A stretch of 42,103 nt of DNA from a virus (taxonomy: Duplodnaviria > Heunggongvirae > Uroviricota > Caudoviricetes): IMG/VR virus record IMGVR_UViG_2675903468_000011, positions 1 to 42,103 of that record. One strand, given 5' to 3'. The notes beneath the pieces are model-generated. The model saw only the letters and a program-made list of their open reading frames with translations. It searched no databases and was not told the origin of the DNA. The translations under genes and the position numbers were made by a program. This document shows positions 6,271-41,634 of the stretch, piece by piece (the stretch's first letter is position 1; the number at the start of each line of letters is the position of its first letter).

Positions 6271-6293
6271 TCATATGTCTCCAGAAAGTAAAA

Positions 6294-6313: not shown

Positions 6314-6387
6314 ACTGATCAAATATCAGGGTGTTTAATGCATATTTTATGGATATATTGCAATGGTATTTTCGATAAGGAAAAACC

Positions 6388-7319: not shown

Positions 7320-7341
7320 GAATAAACAAAAAATACTTTTT

Positions 7342-8376
7342 TCACTCTACATCTCCGACTTTGTCCAAAGTGCCTTTTGCCAATAGTTCTTTGCCACCTT
7401 TAGCCAGGCAAAGCAGGTCCATATACCACGCCTGCCCTCGGGTGTCGCCAGTATAATCAATGCTGCCCACAATGTAATCACCGTCAGTATTAATGCTGGC
7501 AGGCTGTGACATGCCTGGCAGACCGTTAACGTAGAGATTACCGTCGCTTTCAGACTCATCCAGTCGTGCTGGCGATTTCGCTACCTGGTCATTACTCAAA
7601 GAGGCACGGTATACAGATGCCTGATCCAGACGAATAAGCCCACCGAGCTTAATATTTGGATTAATCAGACATCTGACATTTACGCCAGCTCCCATCGTCT
7701 GCTGTGGCATACCGATAAGCCCGGTGTTAGCATTCAACACCGTAGCAACACCAATATATTTATCTTCAGGAACAATATTTACCAGATTATTTTCATACCA
7801 CCAGTTAGCCTTACACTGCCCTGCGATATGATTCATCAACCTTGATGTGTTTTGATAAACAACGCGACCCCGGGGAAATACCGTTTCAGGCATGTCAGGA
7901 ACTGCGCCGGATTCGATGCCATATGGTTCGAATGATTTCATACCCAGACTGAAAAGATCTCTGTACTTCCAGCCAGCTGCCACTGTGGTTTTCACACTTG
8001 CGTTCAGGTGGCCTTCCCAGCTGTCAATACACTGCAACATGATCCAACTGTCTGTGGCATTATCTTTACCAGTGACAGTAAAACGGATATCTCCATTGAA
8101 TATCATACCAACGTTTTCATCAGGATAATTACCTGCTGCATCCGGTTGCCCCTTGTATCCGGCAATAACCTGTATACGCGAAAACTCCTTCTGCATAATC
8201 CGGTTCTGAGTGGTAGGGGACAGGTTATAAACCTTAAAATTCCCAACGAATCCATTGAATATGGTCGCAGGCATTTTCTGAATATTGAAAGTGACTTTAA
8301 GCTCAGAAATTTTTATCCCGTCGCCCTTATCATCAACAAGCAATAATTCAAAGTGACGCATCCAGTTTTTCGACAT
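7342..8376 (-). CDS. Baseplate hub / tail protein (Mu gp44-like)
   Basis: 344 aa; position between tape-measure-proximal genes and baseplate genes; assignment by synteny and size. Confidence 0.5.
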   Translation of the reverse strand: MSKNWMRHFELLLVDDKGDGIKISELKVTFNIQKMPATIFNGFVGNFKVYNLSPTTQNRIMQKEFSRIQVIAGYKGQPDAAGNYPDENVGMIFNGDIRFTVTGKDNATDSWIMLQCIDSWEGHLNASVKTTVAAGWKYRDLFSLGMKSFEPYGIESGAVPDMPETVFPRGRVVYQNTSRLMNHIAGQCKANWWYENNLVNIVPEDKYIGVATVLNANTGLIGMPQQTMGAGVNVRCLINPNIKLGGLIRLDQASVYRASLSNDQVAKSPARLDESESDGNLYVNGLPGMSQPASINTDGDYIVGSIDYTGDTRGQAWYMDLLCLAKGGKELLAKGTLDKVGDVE

Positions 8377-25555: not shown

Positions 25556-25752
25556 AGTTGCTAATGCGGAGTGGAACCACCTGCCCCCACCTGGAACCAC
25601 CTTTTCCTAACCTTTCCCTCAATCGACTTATATATATATATGGGGTTTCTAGTAGAAAGGCGGTTCCAGTGGTTCCAGTGGTTCCGCCCCGCTTGCCACA
25701 AGGTCTGCAAGGTGGAACCACCTTCTCTTTTAGGTGGTTCCGCGTGGTTCCA
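25556..25752. repeat. Replication-origin-like iteron array (GGAACCAC / GTGGTTCC) flanking an AT-rich core
   Basis: About 9 copies of the 8-bp core in both orientations (e.g. 25563, 25584, 25659, 25668, 25703, 25723, 25733), with TATATATATATAT at 25620-25632; overlaps the 3' end of the primase gene. Confidence 0.6.
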
Positions 25753-27916
25753 GCGGTTCCCAAACCTTGCATTTTTTCCCCCCAATTCGCCTTTGGGCAC
25801 GCTTATACCCGCAATTTTGCAAAACATTACTAATTCGCATTTCTTCGCGTTTTCCGATGCGGTCAGGATTTAGCCCAATCGCATCACGCAAAACATCACT
25901 TGCGCGTAAAAATTCGCAATTTCGCGGAAGTTCATTAGTCATCAGGTCGGGCGTGTCGAGCCATTTCTCTACCGTTTCAAGCCAAGCATCCTTGATGGTG
26001 TACTGTTCATGGACACTCGCTGCCAGTTGTTCAGCCTCACGGAACTGGATACCCCCCAGACGCTGAAACACCTCACGAGCCTCAGCCCAAAGTAAAAGGA
26101 GATCTCTTTTTATCGCTTTCACGTCGACTTTCGACACTTCCACGGGGAGCCAGCGACGGTTACCAGTCTTGTCCGCAAGGAATTCGTCCTCATTGGTGGT
26201 ACCAACGAACACCAGGCGACGAGGAAACTGGGTGGCAAACTCCCGGTATTTCGGGATCCAGTTTTCGTGAGTACGCGTCACAAACGCTTTGATTGACTCC
26301 AGCTCTTTGGTATTAAGTCCGCGCAGTTCACCAATCTCTGCCACCAGCCGACCACGCATTTTTCGAGCGAGATCATCGTCTTTTTCGGCAAAAGAGATTT
26401 CAGTAAAAAACGCAGGATCAGGGCTCAGTGCCTCCACTCCGGAAGACTTACCGCAGCCCTGCGGACCAACGAGGATCGGCACCATATCCGCTTTGATGCC
26501 TGGCTCCAGTACTCGCCCCGCCAACGCGGTCCACATGTACATAGACACCGCACGGGTATAAGGCGTGTCGGCAGTACCGAAGTGCGTATGGTAGAAACAT
26601 TCGATGCGCGGCACGCCATCCCACTCCAGTCCGTTCAGCCAGGTGATCGCTGAATCGAATGGTTGTTCATCGGCTGCAAGTAACACCACATCGCGAATAA
26701 GTTCACGACCAACAGGTTTAAATCCCCGCTTTTCCATCGTGATGCGCAGGCGCGCATAATCCGCATCAGTAAACGCCTGCCACTGGCCGGAGCCCGCCGG
26801 GGCGAACATGATTTCGTCACGGAACTGGTCGAAGCGAATATCGATATCCACGAAGTCAGGACGCACAACGGCTTTGGCCGCGTTGCTGATGGTGGCCTCG
26901 ATGCGGCCCCACTTATCGCGCTCGAACGCCGGCAGCGGTAACGGCTCGGTCACTTCGGTGCTGGTAAGGTCTTCGAAATCGTCGTTGCGGATCCCGATGG
27001 CATTAAGGAAATCGCCGTCGTCGCGATGCGCACAACTGGCATGCAGGCATTTAAAATGCCCCTGCTCAAAGCCCGCGGTTCCCGCAGGAAAATAAACTGT
27101 GCTTGTTGGATCGCCCCCGCTACTGTGGCCGTCTTCAAACGGACAGCGGATATATCGTTCACCATTTGCGCCATCCAGCAGCGTCCAGCCATTGGCATCA
27201 AGATATTCAGCTGTATCATCCGTCGCGCCGGGCGTGAATGCTGATCGGTCGCGCATCTTCGTGTTGCCCGCTTCGGTGGTTACCGACACAGGGAGTTGTT
27301 CAGCCAGGCGCTGCCACAGCGTTTCAAGCTGCTCACCAGTAATAGCCGGAGGTTCATCCGGCAAACCGCCGTCCCATTCAATACGCGCGCCGCTGCTGTG
27401 CGTACCGCAGGCAACGAACTGCTGCCCGTTCGCCAGCAACTCGATAATGCCCATATCCCCCGCCAGGCGATGGATACGCTTACGGAAATCACCATCAACG
27501 GCCAGCAGATACAGACACTTATTACTGTTTGCTCGCCAGCGTCGCGGCGGCAACTCACCCAGAAGTTGCACAAGCGTTTTGCGAATATCTGCCTGAATGT
27601 CTTCATCTTCGCTATCACAGTCCAGCGCCAGCCAGCCATGGCCTGTACGCACGCAGATGCCATAATCCGGTTCATTCGACCAGCGGGCAAAATCATGCTC
27701 AGTAACAACATGCCCGGTCCATTGAGCAATACCGGTGACCTGGCGGTCCCGGTTATAGCGACTCGGCGTCTTACCCAACGCTTTCAGTTTACTATCAGGT
27801 GATATGGTCGCACCGGGGTTACATACAACTGGGAGAAGATGATCAGTTCTCCCCAATACCAGGTCGAAATGAAACCACTCATCAGGCGTAGCTCCCCATG
27901 GTTTGCTATCGGACAT
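25730..27916 (-). CDS. Primase/helicase, P4 alpha-like (prim-pol N-terminus plus P-loop NTPase)
   Basis: 728 aa; Walker A GPQGCGKSS; N-terminal acidic prim-pol-like region; adjacent to iteron origin. Confidence 0.75.
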   Translation of the reverse strand: MSDSKPWGATPDEWFHFDLVLGRTDHLLPVVCNPGATISPDSKLKALGKTPSRYNRDRQVTGIAQWTGHVVTEHDFARWSNEPDYGICVRTGHGWLALDCDSEDEDIQADIRKTLVQLLGELPPRRWRANSNKCLYLLAVDGDFRKRIHRLAGDMGIIELLANGQQFVACGTHSSGARIEWDGGLPDEPPAITGEQLETLWQRLAEQLPVSVTTEAGNTKMRDRSAFTPGATDDTAEYLDANGWTLLDGANGERYIRCPFEDGHSSGGDPTSTVYFPAGTAGFEQGHFKCLHASCAHRDDGDFLNAIGIRNDDFEDLTSTEVTEPLPLPAFERDKWGRIEATISNAAKAVVRPDFVDIDIRFDQFRDEIMFAPAGSGQWQAFTDADYARLRITMEKRGFKPVGRELIRDVVLLAADEQPFDSAITWLNGLEWDGVPRIECFYHTHFGTADTPYTRAVSMYMWTALAGRVLEPGIKADMVPILVGPQGCGKSSGVEALSPDPAFFTEISFAEKDDDLARKMRGRLVAEIGELRGLNTKELESIKAFVTRTHENWIPKYREFATQFPRRLVFVGTTNEDEFLADKTGNRRWLPVEVSKVDVKAIKRDLLLLWAEAREVFQRLGGIQFREAEQLAASVHEQYTIKDAWLETVEKWLDTPDLMTNELPRNCEFLRASDVLRDAIGLNPDRIGKREEMRISNVLQNCGYKRAQRRIGGKKCKVWEPLEPRGTT

Positions 27917-27919: not shown

Positions 27920-28120
27920 TTACGCCTTTTGTCTAGCTGTCACTTCCTGAAAAAGCTTTTCTATCGCACGTACTGTAGAAAAGCGAGGGTCAGAATGAAC
28001 CCCGGTGAGAAGCCGACTAATAGAAGACTGCTTCACGCCTGCAATTTCGGCAATTTGGTTTTGGGTATACCCTGAATCAATCAAGCTTTTGACCATCTCT
28101 TGTGGTGTTAGTCCGGACAT
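27920..28120 (-). CDS. Cro-like HTH regulator
   Basis: 66 aa; helix-turn-helix TQNQIAEIAGVKQSSISRLL; divergent from the CI-like repressor gene; first gene of the minus-strand early operon. Confidence 0.6.
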   Translation of the reverse strand: MSGLTPQEMVKSLIDSGYTQNQIAEIAGVKQSSISRLLTGVHSDPRFSTVRAIEKLFQEVTARQKA

Positions 28121-28261
28121 ATTTAAGTCTCCACTTTCGTCTATAGCGCAAATTTATACGAAAACGGATTATTCAGCAATACAGCAATTCTATATCATCC
28201 TAGATTAAAATATCCGATAACGCATAATCACCGTCCCTGTATACAACATGGATGAATCCAA
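28121..28261. promoter_or_regulatory. Divergent cro/cI promoter-operator region
   Basis: 141-bp AT-rich spacer between divergent HTH regulator genes; motif ATAACGCATAAT recurs downstream of cI (about 29040 and 29061). Confidence 0.4.
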
Positions 28262-28936
28262 ATGATTGATACTACCGATATCCTTTCTCAAAACATCAAG
28301 TACCTGATGGACAAAGCCAAGATAAGCTCGATAACTGAGCTGGCACGTCGGTTACAGCTGAACCAACCAACGCTACACAGGCTGGTATCAGGAGAGGTGA
28401 AAGATCCGAAATACGTAACGTTAAAGCAGATCGCCGACTACTTCCACGTGTCACCAATAGACCTGGCAGAAAGGAGCCTTCAAGAAATGGAGAAAGAGGA
28501 CGCGACAGGTATAAAAACGTATATTTCTCTTAGGTTTAATAAAGTACCTGTTTTGGGAAACACTCAGCTAGGCGTTGGAGGACTTTGGAGCGACACCCAA
28601 TATTCAGTAGGTAGCAGTGATGGTTTCATATACTGGCCGACAAAGGATGAAGATGCATACGCCCTGAAATGTGTTGGTGATTCAATGATGCCTAGAATCA
28701 AAGAGGGTGAGTTCGTAATCGTCGAACCCAACCACGACTACACTCCTGGTGATGAAGTACTTGTGGTTACCCGGGACGGTGAGGTCATGGTTAAAACCTT
28801 CTTGTTCGAACGCGATGGCCTGTTCCATCTAATGTCTGTAAATGAAGATCATCCACCAGTCAGAGTACCACGCGAAAACATTGAAAAAATCCATTACGTG
28901 GCGGGGATCGCCAAATCCGCGCTACGCATGTACTAA
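28262..28936 (+). CDS. CI-like repressor (HTH plus S24 LexA-type autopeptidase domain)
   Basis: 224 aa; N-terminal HTH (ITELARRLQLNQPTLHRLVSG); C-terminal S24 motifs GDSMMP (Ser nucleophile) and downstream Lys (EVMVKTF). Confidence 0.85.
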   Translation: MIDTTDILSQNIKYLMDKAKISSITELARRLQLNQPTLHRLVSGEVKDPKYVTLKQIADYFHVSPIDLAERSLQEMEKEDATGIKTYISLRFNKVPVLGNTQLGVGGLWSDTQYSVGSSDGFIYWPTKDEDAYALKCVGDSMMPRIKEGEFVIVEPNHDYTPGDEVLVVTRDGEVMVKTFLFERDGLFHLMSVNEDHPPVRVPRENIEKIHYVAGIAKSALRMY

Positions 28937-28965: not shown

Positions 28966-28996
28966 CAAACCGCTCTCCACAAGGGCGGTTTTCTTA
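28966..28996 (+). terminator. Rho-independent terminator after cI
   Basis: ACCGCTC..GGGCGGT hairpin followed by TTTTCTTATTT. Confidence 0.55.
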
Positions 28997-29377
28997 TTTG
29001 CAAAATAATTCATTTTCGCATTGACACAAAATCCCATAACGCATATAAATACGGTACCGCATAATTAATGCGTTTTTTAATACCAGCTCTTTAACAAACT
29101 GAACCGCGTGACAGGTAAGCCGCAGTGCTCCTGGCAAAACGAAATAGCACCCGATGGGATCGAGGTAAGCGCCGAGTCCGTATGCGTACGGTAAGCGTAG
29201 AGGACAACACCGCGACGAGCTGATAAGTCACGCAAATTGAAACGCCCCGATGATGGGGCGTGCAGTGAATTAATCAAAGGCTTCTGGCCTTTTACTAATC
29301 CACTGGCGAAGCACTGTCTAATTAATACAAGTCGAAGCCGCCGAACCACCAAAGTGAACTAAATGAGGAATTACAAG

Positions 29378-29700: not shown

Positions 29701-29850
29701 ATGAAACCTGAATACCTCCATCGACTGACGGGGCGCGATGTTCTCCGTTATCGCCGTAAAAACTTCGATTTGATGACCTGTCTGGCCGTTGCCACTGCGC
29801 TCGGTCTGATCATCACTTTCATTCTCCTTGTAGCGAGGACCACAGTATGA
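29701..29850 (+). CDS. Small tail-anchored membrane peptide (49 aa), not in ORF track
   Basis: AAGGAA ribosome-binding site 10 nt upstream; [49 protein letters not shown]: basic N-terminus, single C-terminal TM; stop overlaps start of next gene (ATGA). Confidence 0.45.
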   Translation: MKPEYLHRLTGRDVLRYRRKNFDLMTCLAVATALGLIITFILLVARTTV

Positions 29851-30749
29851 GTTTAGAAACCAGTCTCGAACTTAATAATCAACTTCTGGCACAACATAAT
29901 GCGCTGCTTGAACGTCTTATCCGCACAATGGCATCAGGCATTGTTATGCATCCTGACACGATTTCACGAGTGCAGGAATGTCGGGATACAGCAACTGAAA
30001 CTGAAAATATGTCAGCGGCAATGACACTGGATGATCTGGAGTTCAGCGACGTTATCGCACTGGCTGGTTTCTACCCGGTAGCCACCCCTATCACAGAAGA
30101 CATGCTGCAACGTGCTGTTGCCTACCGTGATGCTGAAGGCGATAAACGAGTTGTTCAGATTGATGCTCTCGACAGCGCATTGCAGGGCGTCAAACGAGCC
30201 AGGGCGCTGCTTAAACCTGCTCTCCTGGACCTGTCCCGTAACATCCTTAAGTTCTGGGACGACCTGCCAACCATCGGCGAGCGACGTGCTTTTGCCGAGC
30301 AGCTACTTGATGCACCTGCGGATGGGCGTGATGAAGTTAAGCCGAAAAAGGCCAGTAACAAGGATGGAGAACGCACGGGGTCGTTTTACGTCAAAAATGT
30401 ATCCGGCACAGCAGCCAGTGAACTCCACACCTTACGCAAGTTGAACGAGATGCTGAAAAAAGGCCATATCGAGATCAACCGTGTTGAGTACCTTCAGCTG
30501 CAGGAAGAATTTGCACGCAGAGACGCAGCAAATTCCAGCCAGAATAATGACGCCAAAGATGACCATACAATTGATTTCGCGGCACTACGCAAACAAGCTG
30601 AAGGGTTGATCCTCCAGTTAGCAAAAGGGGGTTACCGGGCAGAAGCTATTGCAATTCTGGAAAAACAGGGAGCCAGGAAACTTGGTGAAGTAACGGATGA
30701 AAATCTCGCTGAAGTAATCACCCTGGCTGAAAAAGCACTGGAGGGTTAA
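29847..30749 (+). CDS. Hypothetical early protein
   Basis: 300 aa, helical, acidic; first large gene of plus-strand early operon; no recognised domain. Confidence 0.5.
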
Positions 30750-30751: not shown

Positions 30752-32053
30752 ATGCCAGACGTTCATGCACAACTTTCTCCATCATCAGCGCATCGATGGA
30801 TGCGCTGCCCAGGAAGTCTGGCGCTGGAGGCCACACAACCAGATAAAGAAACAACTTTTGCAATCGAGGGCACTGCAGCGCACGCGCTTGCTGAAAAAGT
30901 TCTACGAAACAGGCAAAGCCACCCGGAACACTACGCCGGATGCAATGTTTCTATGTTTCTCGGCTCATACCCCCTTCGCGAAAATCCTGATGATACATCT
31001 GGCCCACAGGTGGATGATGAAATGGTCGAAGCCGTTGGCCGGTATGTTGATACGGTCTGGACTCTTGCACAGAATAATGAACTATTGGTTGAACAACGTG
31101 TTGATTTCTCACATATAACGGGTGCGGAAGAATCTTTCGGAACTGCCGACGGCATAATCATCGCTGGTAACGAATTACAAATCCACGACCTGAAATATGG
31201 CAAAGGCGTCCGCATTGATGCAGAACAAAATGAGCAACTACAACTGTATGCTCTGGGTGCGCTCGAACAATTCAGCATGCTGTATGACTTTGAGACTGTA
31301 AGATTATTTATTCACCAGCCAAGGCTCAACCACGTTTCAGAATGGTCGTTAACCGTACAGGAACTTCAGTCTTTCGGTGAACGGGCACAGGAGGCCGCAA
31401 CCAGTGCGATCCTTGTTCTCAATATTGCTGAATGCGAAGGCATTGAGACACTACCGCTGGAAAACTTCATACCTGGAGAAAAACAGTGCCGCTTCTGTAA
31501 AGCAAAAGCTATTTGCACTGCCCAGAAAATGCAGCATTTACAAACAGCGGCCAGCGACTTTGAAGATCTGACAAAGCCTGTCAGCGAAATAATCACCAAT
31601 GCCAGCGCACGAGTACCTCTGTTAACCATTGAGCAGCTTGCGGAGATCTATAGTCAGGCCGACTTTATTGAATCCTGGCTAAAGGCAGTACGGGACCGGG
31701 TTCACAATGAACTCAATGCCGGACATCCGGTACCGGGGTTTAAACTGGTAACAGGAAAACAAGGTAACCGGGCCTGGAGTGATGAAGAGGCAGCTCGCGC
31801 ACTTCTGAAGGACCAGTTCAGGTACAAAACTGAAGAAGTATTCGACTTTAAACTTATTAGTCCCACAAAAGCCGAAAAACTTATCAAAAAGGCCAGTCCG
31901 CGCCGTTGGTCAAAAGTCGAGGCACTGATAACACGAGCTGATGGTAAACCCACCGTCGTTCCCGAGTCAGACCCACGCCCCGCACTCAATATCAACCTTA
32001 TAAATGATTTCGACGACGTATCCGACGATACGCTAACCGCAGACCTCATCTGA
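30752..32053 (+). CDS. PD-(D/E)XK-type nuclease with C-terminal Cys cluster (DUF2800-like)
   Basis: 433 aa; N-terminal [15 protein letters not shown] motif; Cys cluster [10 protein letters not shown] suggestive of Fe-S; upstream of DUF2815-like and DNA polymerase genes. Confidence 0.6.
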
Positions 32054-32068
32054 TTTAAGGAAATACCC

Positions 32069-32617
32069 ATGAAACTGAAGCTGAACAATGTTCGTCTGGC
32101 CTTCCCGTCTCTGTTTGAAGCTAAAACAGTAAACGGCGAAGGCGATCCACGTTTCTCCGCAGTATTTTTAATGTCTCCCAAACACCCACAACTGGAAGAA
32201 ATCCGTAAAGCTATGAAGCAGGTAGCGAAGGAAAAATGGGGGGAGAAGTGGGAGTCCATTTATAACCAGCTGGAGAAAAAACTCAATCTGTGCCTGCATG
32301 ATGGTGATGAAAAAGCAGAGTATGAAGGCTTTCCCGGCAATTTCTTCCTGAACGCTGCTAACAAAGCGCGCCCAGCTGTTCTTGATCGCGATCGTTCGCC
32401 ACTAATTCAGGCTGATGGACGTCCCTATGCAGGGTGCTATGTAAACGCCGTTATCGATATCTGGGCACAGGACAATAATTTCGGTAAACGCATTAATGCC
32501 TCACTCGGCGGAGTCCAGTTCCTGCGAGACGGCGATGCATTCGCTGGCGGCGGAGTGGCAAGCGCTGACGATTTCGACGATATCAGCGAAGGTGCTGATG
32601 CTGAAGCACTGATTTAA
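32069..32617 (+). CDS. DUF2815-like protein (putative ssDNA-binding)
   Basis: 182 aa; N-terminus MKLKLNNVRLAFPSLFEAK; conserved partner of DUF2800 and phage family-A polymerase. Confidence 0.55.
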   Translation: MKLKLNNVRLAFPSLFEAKTVNGEGDPRFSAVFLMSPKHPQLEEIRKAMKQVAKEKWGEKWESIYNQLEKKLNLCLHDGDEKAEYEGFPGNFFLNAANKARPAVLDRDRSPLIQADGRPYAGCYVNAVIDIWAQDNNFGKRINASLGGVQFLRDGDAFAGGGVASADDFDDISEGADAEALI

Positions 32618-32643
32618 AGCATCAATGTATCAGGTCGATAATA

Positions 32644-33243
32644 TCATTTGACCTGATACTTACTTGCATCTACTTTCAATAGCTGTAAATTATACTTATT
32701 TATAACTTCTCGCCCCGGGAAAAGAGTCCAGAACATAAAAACCGTAAACAAACAAAACAACATTACAACAACGCCAAGAACCATATAAACAGTACCCTTA
32801 TTTAGCAACAAACACAGAAATATTAGGCCATACACCAAATAAAAAATAGCTGCAATTTTAGAATACAAGCGATATCGTTTATATTTACCTTTATAACGTA
32901 TAAAAAATCTATCATATTTACATTGAATATGAGGTGCTAAGAACCACCACCGCCAAGATGGCATATCTAATTCAGAATACGTTCTTATATAAAGAATTAA
33001 CGGCCTAAGTTTCAAATTAACCATACCCAAGATGCTTTTTTTGATTTCTCTTTTTATTTCTGCCTTCATAAACTCTAACTCAGAAGGATCAATATACTCC
33101 CGATAATTTTCAAGAATATGTGAGAATTTTGTTGTTTTCGACAAAAACCAACTAACATCATTCAATAATTTATAAACACCCACTGCTGCGGTTATACCTG
33201 GGATTATGAGTCCGACAAGTGCAATAACATCTTTTATTTCCAT
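32644..33243 (-). CDS. Membrane protein, hypothetical (opposite-strand AT-rich insertion)
   Basis: 199 aa; N-terminal TM (VIALVGLIIPGITAAVGVY) and two C-terminal TMs (IAAIFYLVYGLIFLCLLL, VLGVVVMLFCLFTVFMFWTLF); markedly AT-rich; antisense to the surrounding replication operon. Confidence 0.55.
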   Translation of the reverse strand: MEIKDVIALVGLIIPGITAAVGVYKLLNDVSWFLSKTTKFSHILENYREYIDPSELEFMKAEIKREIKKSILGMVNLKLRPLILYIRTYSELDMPSWRWWFLAPHIQCKYDRFFIRYKGKYKRYRLYSKIAAIFYLVYGLIFLCLLLNKGTVYMVLGVVVMLFCLFTVFMFWTLFPGREVINKYNLQLLKVDASKYQVK

Positions 33244-33269
33244 ACAACTAACCCTTCGGAATAAATACC

Positions 33270-35333
33270 ATGTCCAATATACTATGGGGCGACCTGGAAA
33301 CCTATTGCGAAATCCCTATTACGAACGGCACCCATGCGTATGCCGAAGGCGTTGAAGTGATGCTGTTCGCATGGGCTATCAACGACGGGCCAGTAAACGT
33401 ATGGGATATCACTGCTGGTGGCGGTATTCCACACGAATTATACGAAGCAATCGCAGCCTCTGAAACCCTGCTTTATTTCCATAACTCTCACTTCGACCGC
33501 ACCGTTCTGCGTTATGTAATGCCGCGACTGGCACCGCCAGTCGAACGTTGGCGTGACACGATGGTGCAGGCGCTGGCGCACGGTCTCCCGGGGTCTCTGG
33601 GGGAACTCTGCGAAGTACTAGGCGTCCCGCAAGACAAAGCGAAGGACAAAGAAGGTAAAGCGCTGATCCAGCTGTTCTGTAAGCCACGCCCGAAAAACAG
33701 CAAACTGCGTCGGGCCACCAGTAAAACCCACCCGGAAGAATGGCGGCGCTTTGTTGCTTACGCCGGACTGGATATCGAGGCAATGCGCGAAGTCTATAAA
33801 CGTCTGCCGAAGTGGAATTATCAGGGGACAGAGCTGGCGCTCTGGCATCGTGATCAGCAGATCAACGACCGGGGCGTCTGCATGGACATGCAACTCGCGC
33901 GCGCTGCGATCGAAGCGGTAGACCAGGAGCAAAAGCGCCTGGCAAAGCGTACACAGGAAATGACTGATGGCGAAGTGCAGGCAGCCACACAACGGGACGC
34001 GTTGATTAAGCACATCGTTGAATCCTACGGTGTGGAGCTACCAGACATGCAACGCAGTACCCTAGAACGTCGTATAGCCGACCCCGATTTACCATCTGCC
34101 GTGAAAGAACTGCTGGCTATCCGCCTGCAAGCCAGTACTACCAGCACCAGTAAATACAAGGCACTAATGAAAGGCGTAAGCCACGACGGGCGCTTACGCG
34201 GTACGCTACAGTTCTGCGGGGCGTCGCGTACCGGGCGCTGGGCCGGACGGCTATTCCAGCCCCAGAACCTTCCCCGCCCTTCACTAAAACAGGAACAAAT
34301 AGACGAAGGCATCGAAGCACTGAAAGCCGGATGTGCAGACCTGCTGTTTGACAATATCATGGAACTAACCAGTTCAGCGTTACGTGGCTGCATTATCGCG
34401 CCAACAGGCAAAAAACTGGTGGTAAGTGACTTGTCGAACATTGAAGGCCGTATGCTGTCATGGCTGGCAGGAGAAGAATGGAAACTGAATGCATTCAGAG
34501 AGTACGACGCCGGAACGGGTCCGGACTTATATAAACTGGCGTATGCAAAAGCTTTTGATATTGCACCAGATGATGTTGATAAACACATGCGTCAGATCGG
34601 TAAAGTCATGGAACTCGGTCTGGGTTATGGTGGTGGTGTGTCGGCCTTCATCACTTTTGCACTGGTTTACGGTCTCGATCTCGACGAGCTGGCAAACGCT
34701 GCACTGCCAAACATTCCCCGCGATGTTATCCGCGAGGCGAAAAGCTGGTACGGCGAATCGGTTAAACGTAAGTCAACCTACGGGCTTTCTGAACGGGTAT
34801 TTATCGCCTGCGACTCACTTAAACGTCTCTGGCGCAGGGCGCACCCGGCGACCTGCGATTTCTGGTACGAACTGGAGCGCACCGTCCGCACTGCAATCGC
34901 CACACCGCAAAAAACATTGTATTGCGGCTATCTTAAAATCCGCCGCGATGGCGCGTGGCTGCGCATACAGCTACCATCCGGGCGCGCACTCTGCTACCCA
35001 TCCCCGTCCATCGAGAAGGGGAATATCACCTATCAGGGCGTTAACTCCTACTCGCGCAAATGGCAGCGGCTCAAAACCTACGGCGGAAAGCTGGTGGAAA
35101 ACGTCACTCAGGCGGCCGCCCGCGACGTTCTGGCCGGAAACATGCCGCTGATCGAGGATGCCGGTTACAGCATTGTGCTGACGGTACACGATGAGGTGAT
35201 CACCGAAGCGCCGGACACAGACGATTTTAACGATACGGCGCTTTCCGCGCTGCTCTCCACTAACCCCGAATGGGCGCCCGATATCCCGCTGAACGCTGGC
35301 GGCTTCGAGGCGTACCACTACCGTAAGGATTAG
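33270..35333 (+). CDS. Family-A DNA polymerase (3'-5' exonuclease plus polymerase domains)
   Basis: 687 aa; exonuclease-like N-terminus ([10 protein letters not shown]...[12 protein letters not shown]); downstream palm/fingers region ([10 protein letters not shown]...LTVHDEV). Confidence 0.75.
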
Positions 35334-35386: not shown

Positions 35387-36148
35387 ATGATGCAGGATCT
35401 CAATGAAATGGCTCTCAAATACCCACACCCTGTCGAAACTTTTCGTCAATTTTTAGTCGAATCCGGATTTGATGTTACCGGAGAAGAAAACAAAGCCGGT
35501 CATGATTGTTATCGTTTAAGTAATGGTGCCATCATAACGCTTTACCACACCGGAACGATTTTGATTCAAGGATCACAAGCGGCAAAACCAGAGGTTGAAG
35601 CCATTATTAATGAACACTTGGGTAATGCGCCAGCTCAACGAGTTCAGCCAGCCCTGGTTCAAGAGCCAGCCAAAAAGATTTTCATCGTTCACGGTCACGA
35701 CCATGCAGCAAAAGAGCAGCTTGAGCTCATTCTTCATAAGCTTGGGTTACCTGATCATTTTATTTTGCAGAATACAGGTGGTACTGGACTTACGATAATT
35801 GAAGAACTTGAGCGTGAAATTGGTCAAGGGCAGACAGCGACTCGTTTCGGCATTGTTCTTCTCACTCCCGATGATGTGGGATACTCCAAAAGAGACGGTC
35901 AAGAAGCAGCCCTGCCCAGGGCTCGTCAAAACGTAGTTCTAGAAATGGGGATGTTGTTATCATCACTCGGCCGCAGTAACGTGGTCATCTTGCAGAAGCA
36001 ACACCTTGAACAGCCTTCTGATGCTGCGGGTATTCTTTATCTCAACTTTAATGATCATGTTCGAGAAACTGTACCTCGCTTAATCCAGCGCCTTAAACAG
36101 GCCGGTTTCACATTTAATGAAGCTCAAATAGCGAACGCTTCATCTTAA
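35387..36148 (+). CDS. TIR-like domain protein (N-terminal unknown domain plus C-terminal TIR-like nucleotide-binding fold)
   Basis: 253 aa; C-terminal motifs KKIFIVHGHDHAAKEQLE, GIVLLTPDDVG, RQNVVLEMGMLLSSLGRSNVVIL resemble the bacterial TIR-like (COG4271-type) family from memory; own ribosome-binding site and downstream terminator. Confidence 0.5.
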   Translation: MMQDLNEMALKYPHPVETFRQFLVESGFDVTGEENKAGHDCYRLSNGAIITLYHTGTILIQGSQAAKPEVEAIINEHLGNAPAQRVQPALVQEPAKKIFIVHGHDHAAKEQLELILHKLGLPDHFILQNTGGTGLTIIEELEREIGQGQTATRFGIVLLTPDDVGYSKRDGQEAALPRARQNVVLEMGMLLSSLGRSNVVILQKQHLEQPSDAAGILYLNFNDHVRETVPRLIQRLKQAGFTFNEAQIANASS

Positions 36149-36170: not shown

Positions 36171-36196
36171 AAAAGCCCTGCAAATGCAGGGCTTTT
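36171..36196 (+). terminator. Rho-independent terminator
   Basis: GCCCTGCAAATGCAGGGC hairpin followed by TTTTT directly after the TIR-like gene. Confidence 0.7.
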
Positions 36197-36213
36197 TACT
36201 TGAGGTAACCCCT

Positions 36214-36432
36214 ATGTCATTTAAATATCGGGACAGTCCGCTGTACTACCGGACTGCGCGGGAGGCTTTGCGCCTTGAGCAGTCCGGTGAATACGACCTG
36301 GCGGCGAAGGTCTGGGCCAAAGCAAACCGCGAATCACGTAACGAACTTAATCAGGACTGGAGCGAGCGCCGGGCTGATTTTTGCCTGATGCAGAGCATGC
36401 GCGAAAAGCGTAAGGCGGTGGACGATGCCTAA
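36214..36432 (+). CDS. Hypothetical small helical protein
   Basis: 72 aa from ATG preceded by GAGG; the track start at 36184 lies inside the terminator. Confidence 0.4.
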   Translation: MSFKYRDSPLYYRTAREALRLEQSGEYDLAAKVWAKANRESRNELNQDWSERRADFCLMQSMREKRKAVDDA

Positions 36433-36889: not shown

Positions 36890-37450
36890 TTAATCAGTGA
36901 CTTTTTGGTTCTGCTTCTGGTTCTCAAGCATACCTTGAAGTTCAGAATTATCATTTGCGGCAGTTTGCTGATGCTCATGATATTTTTCTTGCGTATAATT
37001 CCTTTCTTTTAACTTTTGTTCATAGTTATTAGAAATAATATCATGACGGTCTTGCAATACTTGTTCAAGTTGATTTTTAAAGTCGTTTATTTTATCTTCG
37101 GAGATCACATTTTTATATTTTTCAATATCACGACGAAGCTCTTTTTCTTTTTTCTTGTTAATACTTAACAACTGTCGATTAACACTGCCTAGTGACCATT
37201 TAAACCCTATCGATTTTATCCAGTGAGCCAAAAACATAGCACAACTAGGAAGTGCTAATAAAAGAAAAGGCTTAATTGAATTTAAATCAGAATCGATATG
37301 TGGGATATGCCCATCCCACGAGGCAACAAGTATGGTCAAAAGCCCTGTGACACCGCCAGCAGCTACATTTGAGAGCAGAGGAACTTTTTCGTAACTATCT
37401 GGCTTAGAGGCGCTACTCAAACGCACCTCCTTTGATTGTTCTTCCAGCAC
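36890..37450 (-). CDS. Membrane protein with C-terminal coiled coil (cassette gene C)
   Basis: 186 aa (alternative TTG start near 37420 after AAGGAGG); two TM segments (VAAGGVTGLLTILVASW, IKPFLLLALPSCAMFLAHWI) then Lys/Glu-rich heptad region; AT-rich. Confidence 0.55.
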   Translation of the reverse strand: MLEEQSKEVRLSSASKPDSYEKVPLLSNVAAGGVTGLLTILVASWDGHIPHIDSDLNSIKPFLLLALPSCAMFLAHWIKSIGFKWSLGSVNRQLLSINKKKEKELRRDIEKYKNVISEDKINDFKNQLEQVLQDRHDIISNNYEQKLKERNYTQEKYHEHQQTAANDNSELQGMLENQKQNQKVTD

Positions 37451-37661
37451 GAATAGCAGTCATCGCAATTTTGTAAAATTCGTCGTCAGAAGAAACATCG
37501 ACTACATCCCGACGAACAGTTCCTTCCGTGTCGATGTATTCAAGTACAAGATGGTGCTTAGATGTAAGCGCAAAGCGTAACCTATCAAACATCATCTTGA
37601 AAACCCAATACAATACAGGAAGAAGGCTAAAAAAAGCCAGCCAGAAAGCAAAAGCAATCAT
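37413..37661 (-). CDS. Small single-pass membrane protein (cassette gene B)
   Basis: 82 aa from ATG preceded by GGGAGGGG; N-terminal TM MIAFAFWLAFFSLLPVLYWVF plus soluble C-terminal domain; stop lies inside the SD/start of gene C. Confidence 0.5.
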   Translation of the reverse strand: MIAFAFWLAFFSLLPVLYWVFKMMFDRLRFALTSKHHLVLEYIDTEGTVRRDVVDVSSDDEFYKIAMTAIRAGRTIKGGAFE

Positions 37662-37683
37662 AGCCCCTCCCCATGTTAGCCTG

Positions 37684-38562
37684 CTATAAGATGCCGTGTA
37701 CTGTAACAACTATGTACGTTTTGTCCAGTGAATTCAAGTTTTCACGAATGAGCAAATCAACGTAGTAGGCATCGCTAAAAACACCGGGCTCTCTTCCAGT
37801 ACTAACACGTTGCAAGAACTCATTATCCTCTATAGATACGCTGATGGTTTCATCGTCATAGTTGACTCGCCAGCCAGTGTTTTTGTCCTTATGGATGGTC
37901 AGAAATGTGATTGGGGCCTCTTCAATCACCCTCTCAGACAAGGATTGCTCGACAGGAACACGCCGATATCTGAAAGGTTCAATACCATCTTCATGTACAT
38001 TAACTAACTCCACCCCTTGCTGGGTTGAAATCTTAAGCGATTCATACCCCTCCTTTTGCAAAGGGTTATGTATTAACTTCGATAACGATTTACGTATGCT
38101 CGGGGAAGCAAGTAAAGGTCGGAAATAGGAAGGAGCTATAATTTCCTCACCATCATCCATAATTATTTTACAATCTCCTTCCGCAGTTAAAGTCAACCGC
38201 CGTATTTGCCTACCATTAATTTGACGAATTAGGTCAATAAGAGTATTTCCTGCGGCAAGCGCGGCTGTGCCTCCGATACCAATAATGCTCAGAATATTCA
38301 AGTGATCAAGCGGATTTTGAATAATATCAATCAAATATTCGAATGAGCCTTCTCTGAATGGCTCAACTTCAACATTAATATTCTCGCTAGTACCATTGAC
38401 AACCAAATTAACTTCTTTCAGCAGGCTATTTAGACCATTTAATGACTCAGTTAAAACATCCAAATCTATTTTATGATCTGCTAGCGCTGGCCCATCATAT
38501 TTAACCACTAGCTTATCTATTATATTTTCTTCTTGCTGAATATCAGTGCTATTTGACGTCAT
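37684..38562 (-). CDS. Hypothetical soluble protein (cassette gene A)
   Basis: 292 aa; AAGGA ribosome-binding site; AT-rich; no recognisable motif; first gene of three-gene minus-strand cassette. Confidence 0.55.
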   Translation of the reverse strand: MTSNSTDIQQEENIIDKLVVKYDGPALADHKIDLDVLTESLNGLNSLLKEVNLVVNGTSENINVEVEPFREGSFEYLIDIIQNPLDHLNILSIIGIGGTAALAAGNTLIDLIRQINGRQIRRLTLTAEGDCKIIMDDGEEIIAPSYFRPLLASPSIRKSLSKLIHNPLQKEGYESLKISTQQGVELVNVHEDGIEPFRYRRVPVEQSLSERVIEEAPITFLTIHKDKNTGWRVNYDDETISVSIEDNEFLQRVSTGREPGVFSDAYYVDLLIRENLNSLDKTYIVVTVHGIL

Positions 38563-38639: not shown

Positions 38640-40037
38640 ATGGCCTATGCTATGTTTTCACCCCGCCCTTATCAAGACCTCATCATCAACCACGAAATAG
38701 ACACCTTGCGCTGCAACATCTGGGCAGGCATGGGTATGGGTAAAACCGTGGCGACGCTCACCACGCTGGAAGATCTCTTTATAGCGGGAGCGGAGACTCA
38801 GCCCGCGCTGGTTCTCGCGCCGCTGCGCGTGGCGGCCAGCACCTGGCCGGATGAAGCGGTTAAATGGGGGCATCTGCGCAATATCGAGGTGCAGCCGATT
38901 GTCGGTAATGCCAAAGCGCGCGCGGCGGCGCTGGCGAACAGTAACGCCAGCGTGTTTACCATCAACTACGACAATCTGGTCTGGCTGGTCGAAGAGCTGG
39001 GCGGCCGCTGGCCGTTCGGTACCGTCATCCCCGACGAAAGCACCCGACTGAAATCCTTCCGGCTGCGCGGGGGCGGTAAGCGCGCGGCGGCGCTGGGCAA
39101 GGTGGCGCATAAGTATGTCCGGCGCTGGATGAATCTCACCGGTACACCAGCGCCGAATGGCCTGGTTGATTTGTGGGGGCAGGCGTGGTTTGTGGATCAG
39201 GGGCAGCGCCTCGGGCGAACTTACGGCGCCTTTACCTCCCGCTGGTTCAACTCAATTCAGTTTCCGGGGCAGAGCTGGACGAAGCTGGAGCCTTTCGCAC
39301 ACTCGCAGGACGAAATACAGCGTGCACTGGCCGACGTGACTATCTCCCTTGATGCGGCCGACTGGTTCGATATCAAAGAGCCCATCCATAACGTGATCCG
39401 CGTGGACATGCCGCCGAAGGCACGCCAGCAGTATCGTGAAATGGAAAAGGAAATGTTTCTCGAACTGAACGGCGAAGGCATCGAAGCGCCGAACGCTGCG
39501 GCAAAGACAGTGAAGTGTCTGCAAATTGCCAGCGGCGCAGTGTACACCGACGACGCCGGGAGCTGGTCAGAACTGCACGACGCGAAGCTGCAGGCGCTGG
39601 ACAGTATTCTCACCGAAGCAGCTGGCGCACCGGTGCTGGTGGCCTATCACTGGAAACACGATCTTGAACGCTTGCTTAAAGCATTCCCTCGCGGTCGTCA
39701 CCTCGACCAGGATCCACAGACACTGCGCGACTGGAATTCAGGAAAGATTCCTGTTCTCTTTGCACACCCTGCCAGCGCGGGCCACGGCCTGAACATGCAG
39801 GACGGCGGGAATATACTGGTATTTTTCTCACACTGGTGGGACCTGGAGCAGTATCAGCAAATTATTGAACGTATCGGCTCAACCAGACAGATACAGGCCG
39901 GACACAATCGTCCGGTATTTATTCACCACATTATTGCTGCCGACACTATGGACGAAATGGTGATGGAGCGGCGCAACTCAAAACGAACAGTGCAGGACAT
40001 CCTGCTCGATGCCATGAAAAAGAGAGGTATAGCATGA
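38640..40037 (+). CDS. SNF2/DEAD-like helicase
   Basis: 465 aa; Walker A GMGMGKT, DEAH-like box VIPDESTRLK, motif LTGTPAPNG; higher GC than neighbours. Confidence 0.8.
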   Translation: MAYAMFSPRPYQDLIINHEIDTLRCNIWAGMGMGKTVATLTTLEDLFIAGAETQPALVLAPLRVAASTWPDEAVKWGHLRNIEVQPIVGNAKARAAALANSNASVFTINYDNLVWLVEELGGRWPFGTVIPDESTRLKSFRLRGGGKRAAALGKVAHKYVRRWMNLTGTPAPNGLVDLWGQAWFVDQGQRLGRTYGAFTSRWFNSIQFPGQSWTKLEPFAHSQDEIQRALADVTISLDAADWFDIKEPIHNVIRVDMPPKARQQYREMEKEMFLELNGEGIEAPNAAAKTVKCLQIASGAVYTDDAGSWSELHDAKLQALDSILTEAAGAPVLVAYHWKHDLERLLKAFPRGRHLDQDPQTLRDWNSGKIPVLFAHPASAGHGLNMQDGGNILVFFSHWWDLEQYQQIIERIGSTRQIQAGHNRPVFIHHIIAADTMDEMVMERRNSKRTVQDILLDAMKKRGIA

Positions 40038-40234
40038 GCGAGAAACCCGACGATTTACTCACCCCGGATGAAGTATGCCAAAAGTTAGGTATTACACAGA
40101 AAACGCTATGTGAGTGGAATATTAAGCATCGTCATCGGGCTATCCTGGCACCAATTCGTTTCAGTGCAAAAGTAGTTCGTTATGAGCGCCGAAATGTCGA
40201 CGCTTTTATTCAAAAATGTCGCAGCCAGTATTAA
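40034..40234 (+). CDS. AlpA-family HTH regulator (excisionase-like)
   Basis: 66 aa; LTPDEVCQKLGITQKTLCEWN helix-turn-helix; adjacent and convergent to integrase. Confidence 0.6.
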   Translation: MSEKPDDLLTPDEVCQKLGITQKTLCEWNIKHRHRAILAPIRFSAKVVRYERRNVDAFIQKCRSQY

Positions 40235-41634
40235 CCTCGCCGCCGTAGCAATGCCACCTGCGCAAGTATGCTCCGCTCGTGAGCCTCGAAAGCTTCGCGC
40301 TTCAACGCAATCTCTTCCTGTAAAATCTCATCAGAAAAGTCGTAATGTTCTGCCATCGGGTCATCTGACTTGCTGGAGTGGTGAAGGCAAAGGAGGCTGA
40401 TTTCCCTTCGGTCTGAGCGGGAATAGCCTCTTTCCTTCATCAAGGCAATAACATTGCTCTTAAGGAATTTACGGCACATCGTATTAAATGCACCGTCTTT
40501 CCCTTTAACAGTCCCATCATGTTTTATTCCTTTTACAGCCCCGTCCGGGCTGTATGTTTTCACCAGCTTATCCAGTGATCGTTTTGAAAATGGCTGCATT
40601 GGCTCACGTGGCTGCAAAAATACATAATCCCTGTTGCACTCAGGAACTGAATCACGCCAGGCTTTCTGCTCGTCGATAATCCGCCGGATCTCAGGCGTTA
40701 TCGGCAGGCGGAAAGCCTTTTGTGTTTTCATAGCCCCTCGCATGCCGATAACCCCTTCCGGATAAACAATTTCACCAGCCTCCTCGTAAACGTAGTCCCA
40801 GCGCAGGTTATGGACATTAATCGGACGAACACCAGTGATGATCATGAAGCGAACAGCATTCTTCTGGTGTACAGAGGTGCAGGCAGCAACATTGAGCCAG
40901 AGTCGGGCGATTGATTCAATATCGGTAAAAAGCCGTGTGGGGGTGGGTTTCTGTACGCGGGAGGAAACATAATCATCTGGCAAACTGGCGGCAACATTGC
41001 GGCCGTTGCAAAGAATAGGTGCGCAGAACTTCCAGAACCGACGGAGCTCGGCAAACAACTCCAGGGCGTTATTGTTCGAGCGAGTGGCGATCCACTCGTC
41101 CAGCACTTCCACCAGCCGACTGTATGTTACGTCGCTGAACACCTCGCGCTCGCCGAACGTTGCTTTAATCCGGTCGATACGCACCCCGTAGGTTGTGAAA
41201 CTGTCCGGGCTCAGCTTCTGCCGGGCGACTTTGGCTTTGAGGTCATCCCGGTACATTTCCAGCGCTGCATGTACGGACTCTGCTCGCAGGCCACCGTCAG
41301 CCATACCTAGCGCTTTTTCGCGCGCCAGCTGGATAGCGAGCTCCGGCCACTCGCCGAGCTTTTTACCTTTGAGGCCCATCTTTTTTGGAAACTCGGCGTA
41401 AAATGTAACCTTACCGGCTTTGCTGAAATCGATACGGAGATAGTTCTCTTTTTCGTATTTGGAACGGCGAGCCACGCCGGAAGCAGCGAGGATGATTTTG
41501 GCGGCAGCAACACAGATTTTCATGTGTGCGCTGGTATAGGGGGGTTTACAGGCGTCCCATTTTTCAGATGCGGCTAAAACATCGTCATTATTGGGGCTAT
41601 CCGGATTATGTGTTACAGTGCGCGGCATTCTCAA
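40231..41634 (-). CDS. int: Tyrosine integrase
   Basis: 467 aa; catalytic-domain motifs TGVRPINV (box I Arg) and C-terminal LHHSSKSDDPMAEHY (His...Tyr region, comparable to lambda Int LLGHKSDTMASQY). Confidence 0.85.
   Translation of the reverse strand: MRMPRTVTHNPDSPNNDDVLAASEKWDACKPPYTSAHMKICVAAAKIILAASGVARRSKYEKENYLRIDFSKAGKVTFYAEFPKKMGLKGKKLGEWPELAIQLAREKALGMADGGLRAESVHAALEMYRDDLKAKVARQKLSPDSFTTYGVRIDRIKATFGEREVFSDVTYSRLVEVLDEWIATRSNNNALELFAELRRFWKFCAPILCNGRNVAASLPDDYVSSRVQKPTPTRLFTDIESIARLWLNVAACTSVHQKNAVRFMIITGVRPINVHNLRWDYVYEEAGEIVYPEGVIGMRGAMKTQKAFRLPITPEIRRIIDEQKAWRDSVPECNRDYVFLQPREPMQPFSKRSLDKLVKTYSPDGAVKGIKHDGTVKGKDGAFNTMCRKFLKSNVIALMKERGYSRSDRREISLLCLHHSSKSDDPMAEHYDFSDEILQEEIALKREAFEAHERSILAQVALLRRRG

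Follow-up and report, generated by a model that had tools for sequence, protein, structure and literature searches.

Syntenic early regions have already been published for the phages APSE, BPP-1, Xfas53 and YeP4 and for Bcep phages (PMC8579659), and a 'duf2800-gp2.5-polA module' has been named for phages of Firmicutes, with an 'identical gene context' in most phages of Gram-negative hosts (PMC8093625). The replication module of phage Enc34 has been listed as a primase, a polymerase, a VRR-NUC protein and a helicase (PMC5686142). Family-A DNA polymerases (PolAs) of the Leu762 type, encoded next to a RecB-like nuclease and an SNF2 gene, form a defined class that has been proposed as a mark of temperate phages (PMC6302109). 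The present analysis concerns the early region of an Escherichia coli prophage, deposited as IMG/VR record IMGVR_UViG_2675903468_000011; all 42,103 nucleotides of this stretch are referred to as the window. An earlier note had described positions 30752-35333 as a self-sufficient replication module in a lambdoid-style temperate phage. The gene inventory of the early region can be matched one to one with the replication set of T7: the primase-helicase corresponds to gp4, PolA to gp5, the SSB (a protein that binds single-stranded DNA) to gp2.5, the nuclease processing 5′ ends to gp6 and the one cutting branches to gp3. This match therefore favours a T7-like, phage-encoded replisome accompanied by its own recombination proteins, a reading to which a probability of about 0.6 is assigned.

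The polymerase operon

PolA is matched by the PHROG 17 'DNA polymerase' family over residues 1-685 (2e-126) and by Pfam DNA_pol_A over residues 275-457 only, with 48.2 bits against a cut-off of 34.3. The catalytic core is represented by motif A (SDLSNIEGR, residue 386), motif B (R441..K445..L449..Y453G) and motif C (VHDE, residue 639), whereas a 5′ nuclease domain is lacking. The N-terminal domain carries the exonuclease motifs ExoI (D8xE10), ExoII (N72xxxD76) and ExoIII (Y164xxxD168), gives weak matches to PHROG exonuclease subunits and is predicted to be active. In the HMMER alignment, Leu449 falls opposite Taq Phe667, the equivalent of E. coli Phe762, and leucine thus replaces phenylalanine in motif B. 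With its motifs intact and its Pfam score above the cut-off, the 687-aa protein is a polymerase, as the earlier note had claimed. Primer extension in vitro has been observed for five of the eight Leu762 phage PolAs tested (PMC9069017). The PolA match falls into two pieces in APSE-1 and in some Jersey-like phages of Salmonella, whereas that of the window is uninterrupted; the annotation of APSE-1 places an HNH endonuclease gene within the polymerase gene (4717-7698 of the compared stretch), which suggests a mobile insertion.

The DUF2800 protein covers its Pfam profile in full (Table 1) and is also matched by PDDEXK_1 (2.8e-10) and by a PHROG 'exonuclease' family (2e-135). It combines cysteines of the Cas4/AddB type (C19 and C246xxC249x5C255) with the nuclease motifs D133, D146-x-K148 and Q162xxxY166, and all of these residues (C19, C246, C249, C255, D133, D146, K148, Q162 and Y166) are unchanged in six phages with identities as low as 33%. 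The four-cysteine signature fits the Fe-S-type PD-(D/E)XK nuclease proposed by the earlier note. A sequence search of PDB with this protein returned nothing useful. The DUF2800 protein of phage Bas14 has been described as an AdnA/RecB-like nuclease (bioRxiv 10.64898/2026.07.14.737667); what DUF2800 does during the phage life cycle was still termed unknown by a preprint of July 2026. The DUF2815 assignment of the adjacent gene is borne out by the Pfam match and by relatives in PDB, namely 4jg2 (1e-16), 5odj, which is the Enc34 SSB (4e-16), and 4klk; the label in PHROGs is gp2.5-like SSB/annealase. The protein ends in the acidic, disordered C-terminal tail typical of gp2.5-type SSBs, ASADDFDDISEGADAEALI. 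For the Enc34 homologue, binding of single-stranded DNA (ssDNA) has been demonstrated by experiment and the gp2.5 fold has been established (PMC5686142).

Two further genes of the same operon encode a small VRR-NUC protein and an SNF2-family protein. The former scores 17.9 bits with Pfam, below the cut-off of 23.8, yet the PHROG 93 match (7.6e-32) and the invariant residues D37, E51 and K53 speak for the assignment, and RefSeq labels a 93%-identical protein as VRR-NUC. The latter consists of the helicase core only; SNF2-rel_dom is found above its cut-off (40.9 versus 24.9 bits), Helicase_C is borderline (22.6 versus 23.5 bits), and the best PDB matches, yeast Snf2 and a Sulfolobus Rad54-like protein, agree with the SNF2 call. 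The earlier note had located the entire module at 30752-35333. This is right for the nuclease, the DUF2815 protein and the polymerase, whereas VRR-NUC, the SNF2 protein and the primase are encoded outside those coordinates. Overall, the observed gene content is confirmed, far beyond chance.

Initiator and putative origin

The 728-aa primase-helicase is matched by PHROG primase/helicase families and contains a VapE-like domain (VapE-like_dom, 2.3e-60), with the helicase domain at residues 427-639. Its N-terminal 317 residues match the archaeo-eukaryotic primase (AEP) family Prim-Pol (PF09250, 1.8e-10) and include the motifs LALDCD and GTHSSG, followed by a zinc-finger-like segment of cysteines and histidines at residues ~258-297. 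Origin binding is presumed to reside in the C-terminal region. Among solved structures, the nearest relative is PDB 7pds, the PriRep protein of SaPI5 (9.5e-34), which was reported in a paper on the self-loading Rep helicases of SaPI1 and SaPI5 (PMC9371898). A PDB sequence search with the N-terminus of the primase returned nothing useful. The P4 alpha type unites a Toprim/DnaG-like primase carrying a zinc ribbon with a D5-type SF3 helicase. The designation 'P4-type' in the earlier note is not sustained: PF09250 and VapE are present instead, DUF5906 reaches only sub-threshold scores, and no Toprim or D5 family was reported.

A putative origin extends into the primase-helicase gene at its 3′ end. 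Eight of the 17 matches to GTGGTTCCA in the 42-kb window (at most one mismatch) are clustered in 25572-25752, followed at 25753-25761 by a ninth, which has two mismatches. From its start in the last codons of the primase gene, the cluster runs through two copies pointing leftward, an alternating AT tract (25631-25643), three rightward copies in tandem, a single leftward one and another three that point rightward, so that the AT tract is flanked by leftward iterons at 25572-25600 and rightward iterons at 25660-25686. The same layout is found 3′ of the primase gene in YeP4, with AGACAACC as the iteron, and in the E. coli phage vB_EcoM-606R2 (606R2), with GGTGACRG. Between the primases of 606R2 and the window, only the N-terminal 324 residues are shared (62% identity), while the helicase/C-terminal half of the 606R2 protein differs along with the iterons. 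Conservation of the architecture, combined with a change of iterons that accompanies the C-terminal half of the initiator in 606R2 and YeP4, is good evidence for a functional origin. E. coli strain STEFF_1 has an identical primase and identical iterons next to another cI/cro pair. The primase, iteron and immunity combinations of 606R2 and STEFF_1 indicate that the initiator-plus-origin and immunity regions have been exchanged independently.

For the self-loading Rep/PriRep helicases of SaPIs, experiments have established an origin just downstream of rep with six to twelve iterons, of which two or more stand on either side of an AT-rich centre in opposed orientations (PMC9371898). Homology to 7pds and opposed iterons around an AT tract are both present in the window, which corresponds to a PriRep-type initiator and its origin as defined for SaPIs, with iteron binding predicted. 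The earlier proposal of a primase/helicase with an iteron origin is thereby borne out.

A model of replication and the place of the polymerase

Domain identities, catalytic motifs, synteny, the co-varying tails described below and an origin whose architecture varies between lineages as outlined above are the observations from which a tentative order of events can be proposed; in it, PolA would carry out bulk synthesis, and all protein-protein contacts are predicted ones. Upon induction, CI would cleave itself. The minus-strand operon, in which cro precedes the primase-helicase gene, would yield the PrimPol-VapE protein, which would bind the GTGGTTCCA iterons 3′ of its own gene, melt the AT tract, load itself as a hexameric helicase and synthesize primers. 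These would be extended by the Leu762-type proofreading PolA together with the gp2.5-like SSB, both produced from the plus-strand operon under a CI-controlled pL-like promoter. The DUF2800 Fe-S nuclease would resect ends and pass ssDNA to the SSB/annealase, like T7 gp6 and gp2.5 or lambda Exo and Beta, and resection and annealing would lead to recombination-dependent replication and concatemers. Branched intermediates would be cut by VRR-NUC before packaging, and the SNF2 translocase might remodel forks or branches. For fork progression, the term 'self-sufficient' chosen by the earlier note is plausible by analogy with T7; taken as a whole, it is overstated.

Several points weigh against this model. 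The window yielded no ligase, clamp/processivity factor, 5′ flap nuclease or topoisomerase. Initiators of the SaPI type normally work with the polymerase of the host, and PolA is therefore not necessarily the replicative enzyme; the Leu762 substitution slowed Taq polymerase (cited in PMC6302109). SNF2 proteins are translocases without an established role in phage replication. Moreover, the PolA operon is separate from that of the initiator and lies between cI and xis/int, where lambda has its recombination genes exo/bet/gam. The same position argues for an alternative in which the plus-strand operon serves mainly recombination or repair, as an analogue of lambda Red with a gap-filling polymerase, while host Pol III is recruited, as in SaPIs, to forks that the PriRep-like initiator opens and performs bulk replication. 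This alternative is consistent with the recognition of nuclease and gp2.5-type annealase as a recombinase pair (PMC8093625), with SaPI Rep/PriRep replicons that encode no polymerase (PMC9371898) and with a Leu762-type polymerase for which no processivity factor was found. It is the main alternative but is considered the less likely of the two: among the genes of the module, the one for the proofreading PolA is conserved best (61-73% identity between genera), a primase/VapE gene accompanies it in every case, also where the order of genes has changed, and virulent Chi-like and Jersey-like phages possess the same set. A phage-encoded replisome therefore remains the preferred reading.

A shared tail on nuclease and SSB

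The C-termini of the nuclease (31999-32053) and the SSB (32563-32617) encode the same acidic peptide, which in the SSB reads DDFDDISEGADAEALI (DDFDDIS..ALI). The acidic motif is placed exactly 16 residues from the end in both proteins, and a loose regular expression for it finds only four matches among the 40,231 six-frame open reading frame (ORF) residues of the window. In other phages, both tails change together. Nuclease and SSB carry NDFENV..AESLI and DDFDEI..AESLI in YeP4, DDFADVS..EDLV and DEFDDIT..ADLV in BPP-1, EDDFEV and EDDFEA in BcepC6B, DFQDLS and DFEDLS in Xfas53, AWDDEDDDEV and AWDEDEDWEDEV in Chi-like phages, GDLE and DDLED in Jersey-like phages, and EDDFDKL and EDDFDEL in the Staphylococcus phage phiSa2wa. 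Across 13 phages, cognate tails outscore non-cognate ones (mean 27.7 versus 22.0; pairing permutation p=0.00045), a p-value that treats related phages as separate and corresponds to about five independent changes. Gene conversion as the source of the likeness was rejected, since in the window the DNAs coding for the tails have only 11 nt in common and diverge in their remaining codons. The acidic motif occurs a third time in the linker of the primase (residues 311-316), but this copy was discarded as unsupported, as the primases of YeP4, 606R2 and Chi-like phages do not conserve it.

In T7, the acidic tail of the gp2.5-type SSB mediates contacts with the polymerase and the primase-helicase. 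The tail motif also resembles DFDDDIPF, the C-terminal tip of E. coli SSB. Co-variation of the tails without homogenisation at the DNA level argues that nuclease and SSB dock on a common partner. We infer that the tail of the nuclease is a docking peptide like that of the SSB, for a partner that both proteins would share; the common docking site could lie on the polymerase, on the primase-helicase or in the ssDNA groove of the SSB itself. In the Enc34 crystal, the tail of one SSB molecule inserts into the groove of its neighbour (PMC5686142). If the tail does act in docking, end resection, annealing and synthesis would be physically coupled. No mention of the nuclease tail was found in the searchable literature.

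Distribution and relatives

A tblastn search with PolA returned 1,734 phage records. Outside E. coli, the nearest relatives all belong to temperate phages, namely the Yersinia phages YeP4-6 (73%), the Bordetella phages BPP-1/BMP-1/BIP-1 (67%) and Acinetobacter 4316 (64%), followed by Hamiltonella APSE phages (60-64%), the Burkholderia phage BcepC6B (57%) and the Xylella phage Xfas53 (56%). Distant relatives occur in Jersey-like Salmonella phages (~41%), Liberibacter phages (38%), Staphylococcus and Streptococcus prophages (~32%) and Chi-like phages (~30%). The order nuclease-SSB-PolA-VRR-NUC-SNF2-integrase is collinear with the window in BPP-1, YeP4, APSE-1, Xfas53, BcepC6B and Acinetobacter 4316, and cI and the primase are also found in these six phages wherever the compared stretch reaches them. 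The common layout comprises primase and cro on the minus strand and, on the plus strand, cI followed by nuclease, SSB, cargo, PolA, VRR-NUC, cargo, SNF2, xis and int. Identities to BPP-1, YeP4 and APSE-1 amount to 61-73% for PolA, 66-75% for SNF2, 55-66% for SSB, 46-59% for the nuclease and 54-76% for VRR-NUC. Collinear order and homologous proteins identify an early module of the BPP-1/APSE/Xfas53 type, and the order nuclease-SSB-PolA-VRR-NUC-SNF2 is kept, together with a VapE/primase gene, from phages of Proteobacteria to those of Firmicutes and Bacteroides.

Within E. coli, the PolA gene is present in 159 of the 5426 complete genomes (~3%), with 95-99% identity in 152 of them. The deposited phages vB_EcoM-606R2, -689R2 and -611R5 (ON470579, ON470582 and ON470588) encode a PolA that is 97% identical, a nuclease that is 99% identical and an SSB that is 99-100% identical. 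Together with the prophages located at yfhL in the 159 complete genomes, they represent the same phage lineage as the window, with 606R2 differing in the C-terminal half of the primase, the iterons and cargo A and C. RefSeq already labels the genes as DUF2800, DUF2815, DNA polymerase, VRR-NUC and DEAD/DEAH helicase, and a literature search for vB_EcoM-606R2 found no paper. The module type is thus already in the literature, and the lineage is already deposited and annotated. The earlier note had regarded a polymerase-bearing temperate coliphage as unusual. This view does not hold, as the same layout exists in long-known temperate phages; a gene set and order known from elsewhere and present in about 3% of E. 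coli genomes make such a prophage ordinary. The notion of a mosaic genome is confirmed, with an early region like that of BPP-1/APSE/YeP4 and virion genes like those of Salmonella phage SEN34, which shares the contractile-tail virion set of the window.

Among the E. coli relatives, STEC383 has an internal stop in the gene for the 300-aa protein located upstream of the nuclease, and two others carry an IS66 insertion. These lesions could point to a decaying, non-functional prophage remnant, an explanation that is scarcely credible for the window itself, where all core ORFs are intact, catalytic residues are kept and the full set of virion, lysis and integrase genes is present, and of which three near-identical relatives have been deposited as phage genome records.

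Cargo slots and the question of modified DNA

The core of the module is constant across E. coli relatives (GC 0.49-0.58), whereas three positions vary (Table 1). The 199-aa ORF in slot A gave no family match in profile, PHROG and defence library scans. Elsewhere, slot A is occupied by a 209-aa membrane protein gene (606R2), Nmad5 and a 229-aa gene (STEFF_1), Bro-N/Ant (Xfas53), five genes including a methyltransferase (BcepC6B) or DUF2303 (Acinetobacter 4316); APSE variants have been reported to differ 'upstream of the DNA polymerase' (PMC8579659). The gene for the Toll/interleukin-1 receptor (TIR)-domain protein in slot B is found in 10 of the 5426 genomes; the 606R2 allele is 71% identical, and the gene is absent from STEFF_1, P4 and JNE23-001. 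At the corresponding position after PolA, Acinetobacter 4316 encodes a 192-aa 'DNA polymerase III subunit beta' (10081-10659 of the compared stretch) and BcepC6B a RusA-like resolvase (10302-10817 of the compared stretch); both are accessory replication or recombination genes. Slot C comprises genes for proteins of 186 aa (one transmembrane helix and a coiled coil), ~82-98 aa (one transmembrane helix) and 292 aa (PDC-S42/DUF7946, 3.2e-37), and contains DUF6338, a 243-aa protein or plus-strand hypothetical genes in other relatives. No paper was found in a literature search for PDC-S35 and PDC-S42. The exact cargo combination of the window occurs in none of the 5426 complete E. coli genomes (best coverage 81%). 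With its low GC, opposite orientation and patchy occurrence, the cargo would seem to consist of accessory genes that were acquired. They may be expressed in the lysogen, and the TIR, PDC-S42-matching and small membrane proteins are candidate defence genes. That the module combines both features, a co-varying docking tail on nuclease and SSB and an operon acting as scaffold for three cargo recombination hot spots, has about an even chance of being correct.

The variable slots also bear on the suggestion of the earlier note that such modules are associated with modified DNA. Several observations could favour a module that exists because modified bases of this phage are poorly handled by the host polymerase: some E. 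coli relatives (STEFF_1 and others) have the 'putative nucleotide modification' gene Nmad5 in the SSB-PolA slot, where BcepC6B has its methyltransferase, and DUF4406, which we take to be a nucleoside deoxyribosyltransferase-like family, appears in a neighbouring slot of relatives. Nmad5 and the methyltransferase reside in variable cargo slots, though, and not in the conserved core. The N-terminus of PolA gives a weak match to the DpoZ model (E=3.9e-4), which covers the shared exonuclease domain only and is far under threshold; with 19 bits against a cut-off of 500, identity with the aminoadenine polymerase DpoZ was rejected. No base-modification enzyme was found among the scanned ORFs of the window (e.g., Nmad5, DpdA/queuosine genes, glycosyl- or aminocarboxypropyl-transferase, dNMP hydroxymethylase/kinase). 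An origin of the module in DNA modification is thus highly improbable for this phage, and the proposed link is not supported.

Genetic switch and remaining features of the window

The prophage is integrated next to host yfhL, which is abutted by a tyrosine integrase gene (40231-41634, minus strand), the same site as in STEFF_1. Virion, lysis and Q genes occupy ~1.6-25.4 kb of the minus strand. The virion genes (tail sheath, baseplate, tape measure, portal and terminase) indicate a contractile tail, and the lysis region includes a lambda-type holin and, upstream of the lysis genes, a Q-like antiterminator. A repressor with helix-turn-helix (HTH) and S24 domains divergent to cro, a Q-family antiterminator and a lambda-type holin constitute a lambdoid CI/Cro/Q circuit, as the earlier note had recognized, with putative operators. 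Cro is 100% identical to the 'HTH cro/C1-type' protein of 606R2. A long plus-strand operon runs from the CI side, divergent to the minus-strand cro and primase-helicase genes. The 10-mer ATAACGCATA is located in the spacer of the pL-like promoter candidate (29036-29045) and again in the cro-cI intergenic region just upstream of cI (28217-28226). Both copies may be CI operator sites, and their positions would fit a CI-repressed pL-like promoter. Hairpins at 29242-29261 and 29275-29293 lie between the candidate promoter and the first ORF of the operon. A 91-aa reverse ORF (29077-29352) in this interval has no family match and is probably non-coding, part of a leader with hairpins.

The 300-aa protein encoded directly upstream of the nuclease is kept in the E. 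coli relatives. Its C-terminal 58 aa are common to YeP4 (BLASTP 4e-22) and APSE-1 P53 (1e-15), while no BLASTP match was obtained to the genes that lie upstream of the nuclease gene in BPP-1 (Bbp36 and Bbp37), phiSa2wa and the Jersey-type ER15. A single-sequence AlphaFold2 model has a mean predicted local distance difference test score (pLDDT) of 47 and is confident only for residues 241-300, a three-helix unit. The modules of E. coli, YeP4 and APSE have in common a gene for a small ANR-family ('AraC negative regulator') protein, located after PolA and before VRR-NUC, with tblastn identities of 58-84%. The first ORF of the window (1-507, plus strand) encodes a DUF2335 membrane protein. A hexapeptide-repeat acetyltransferase gene (1064-1609, plus strand), which may be a lysogenic-conversion gene, adjoins the genes for tail fibre and tail-fibre assembly; GC is low here (0.386 in 1001-2000). 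Rfam and tRNA scans of the whole window returned no match.

Table 1. Features of the early region and adjoining genes, in window coordinates
Feature	Position	Strand	Evidence and remarks
Putative replication origin	25572-25762		nine GTGGTTCCA 9-mers, at most two mismatches; overlaps 3′ end of primase-helicase gene
Primase-helicase-initiator, 728 aa	25730-27916	-	VapE and Prim-Pol; outside 30752-35333
Cro-like HTH regulator	27920-28120	-	HTH_3 1.2e-09; first gene of minus-strand early operon, followed by primase-helicase
CI-like repressor, HTH and S24 self-cleaving peptidase	28262-28936	+	Peptidase_S24 2.6e-18, HTH_26 5.4e-12
cI terminator	28967-28991		
pL-like promoter candidate, TTGACA-N17-TATAAA	29021-29049	+	downstream of cI terminator, directed into replication operon
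Conserved 300-aa protein	29847-30749	+	phrog_6784 3e-178
DUF2800 Cas4/RecB-type PD-(D/E)XK nuclease, 433 aa	30752-32053	+	PF10926 E=4e-110, profile 1-368/368
DUF2815/T7 gp2.5-like ssDNA-binding and annealing protein	32069-32617	+	PF10991 (Enc34_ssDNA-bd) 2.4e-44
Slot A (SSB/PolA), 199-aa ORF, three predicted transmembrane helices	32644-33243	-	GC 0.32; 13/5426 genomes
Family-A DNA polymerase, 687 aa, N-terminal 3′-5′ exonuclease domain	33270-35333	+	PF00476 and PHROG 17
Slot B (PolA/ANR), TIR-domain protein, CAP12/Pycsar-type	35387-36148	+	PF10137 5.8e-31; PADLOC PDC-S35 2.6e-109; GC 0.45
Small ANR-family protein	36184-36432	+	NF033650 5.6e-20
VRR-NUC PD-(D/E)XK nuclease, 89 aa	36619-36888	+	phrog_93 7.6e-32; outside 30752-35333
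Slot C (VRR-NUC/SNF2), three-gene cassette	36890-38562	-	GC 0.39; 17 genomes, ~84% identity
SNF2-family ATPase/translocase, 465 aa, helicase core only	38640-40037	+	SNF2-rel_dom; outside 30752-35333
Excisionase-like HTH_17 protein	40034-40234	+	last gene of plus-strand operon; integrase next, opposite strand

Comparison with known systems

The analysis corrects the impression that a temperate coliphage encoding its own polymerase is exceptional and places the prophage in a module family that is already documented. Annotation of the region can now include an origin, a PriRep-type initiator, a Leu762 PolA, a gp2.5-type SSB/annealase, a Cas4-type nuclease, VRR-NUC, SNF2 and three cargo slots, the last of which are places to look for prophage-encoded defence genes. 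The co-varying tail of nuclease and SSB and the cargo slots go beyond what was found described and are the more novel part; if the shared tail is a true docking peptide, it would offer a simple handle on the assembly of a module found in >1,700 phage records.

Several phages of the BPP-1/APSE/YeP4 type have been described as podoviruses (PMC8579659), whereas the phage in the window has a contractile-tail virion module. It also differs from BPP-1/APSE-type phages in its lambda-type Q/holin lysis region, in its cargo and in an integrase encoded on the opposite strand. PolA resembles the 'Leu762 group I' polymerases (Nasko et al. 2018, PMC6302109) in having Leu762, RecB/Cas4-like nuclease and SNF2 neighbours, no ribonucleotide reductase and, as predicted from its genes, a temperate host phage; that class was defined on marine virome contigs, and the likeness is one of residue and neighbourhood. 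With SaPI5 PriRep and SaPI Rep, the initiator shares a homologous VapE-type helicase with an N-terminally fused primase and an origin directly downstream with opposed iterons around an AT-rich centre. In contrast to SaPIs, the iterons are 9-mers rather than 5-6-mers, the host is Gram-negative, and the element is a phage, not a satellite, with its own polymerase and SSB. With T7, the phage has in common an SSB of the gp2.5 fold family with an acidic C-terminal tail and a family-A polymerase with proofreading. Unlike T7, it combines PrimPol and VapE where T7 uses Toprim and DnaB-like domains, has leucine at position 762 where T7 has tyrosine, employs nucleases of other folds and families, adds an SNF2 ATPase and follows a temperate lifestyle.

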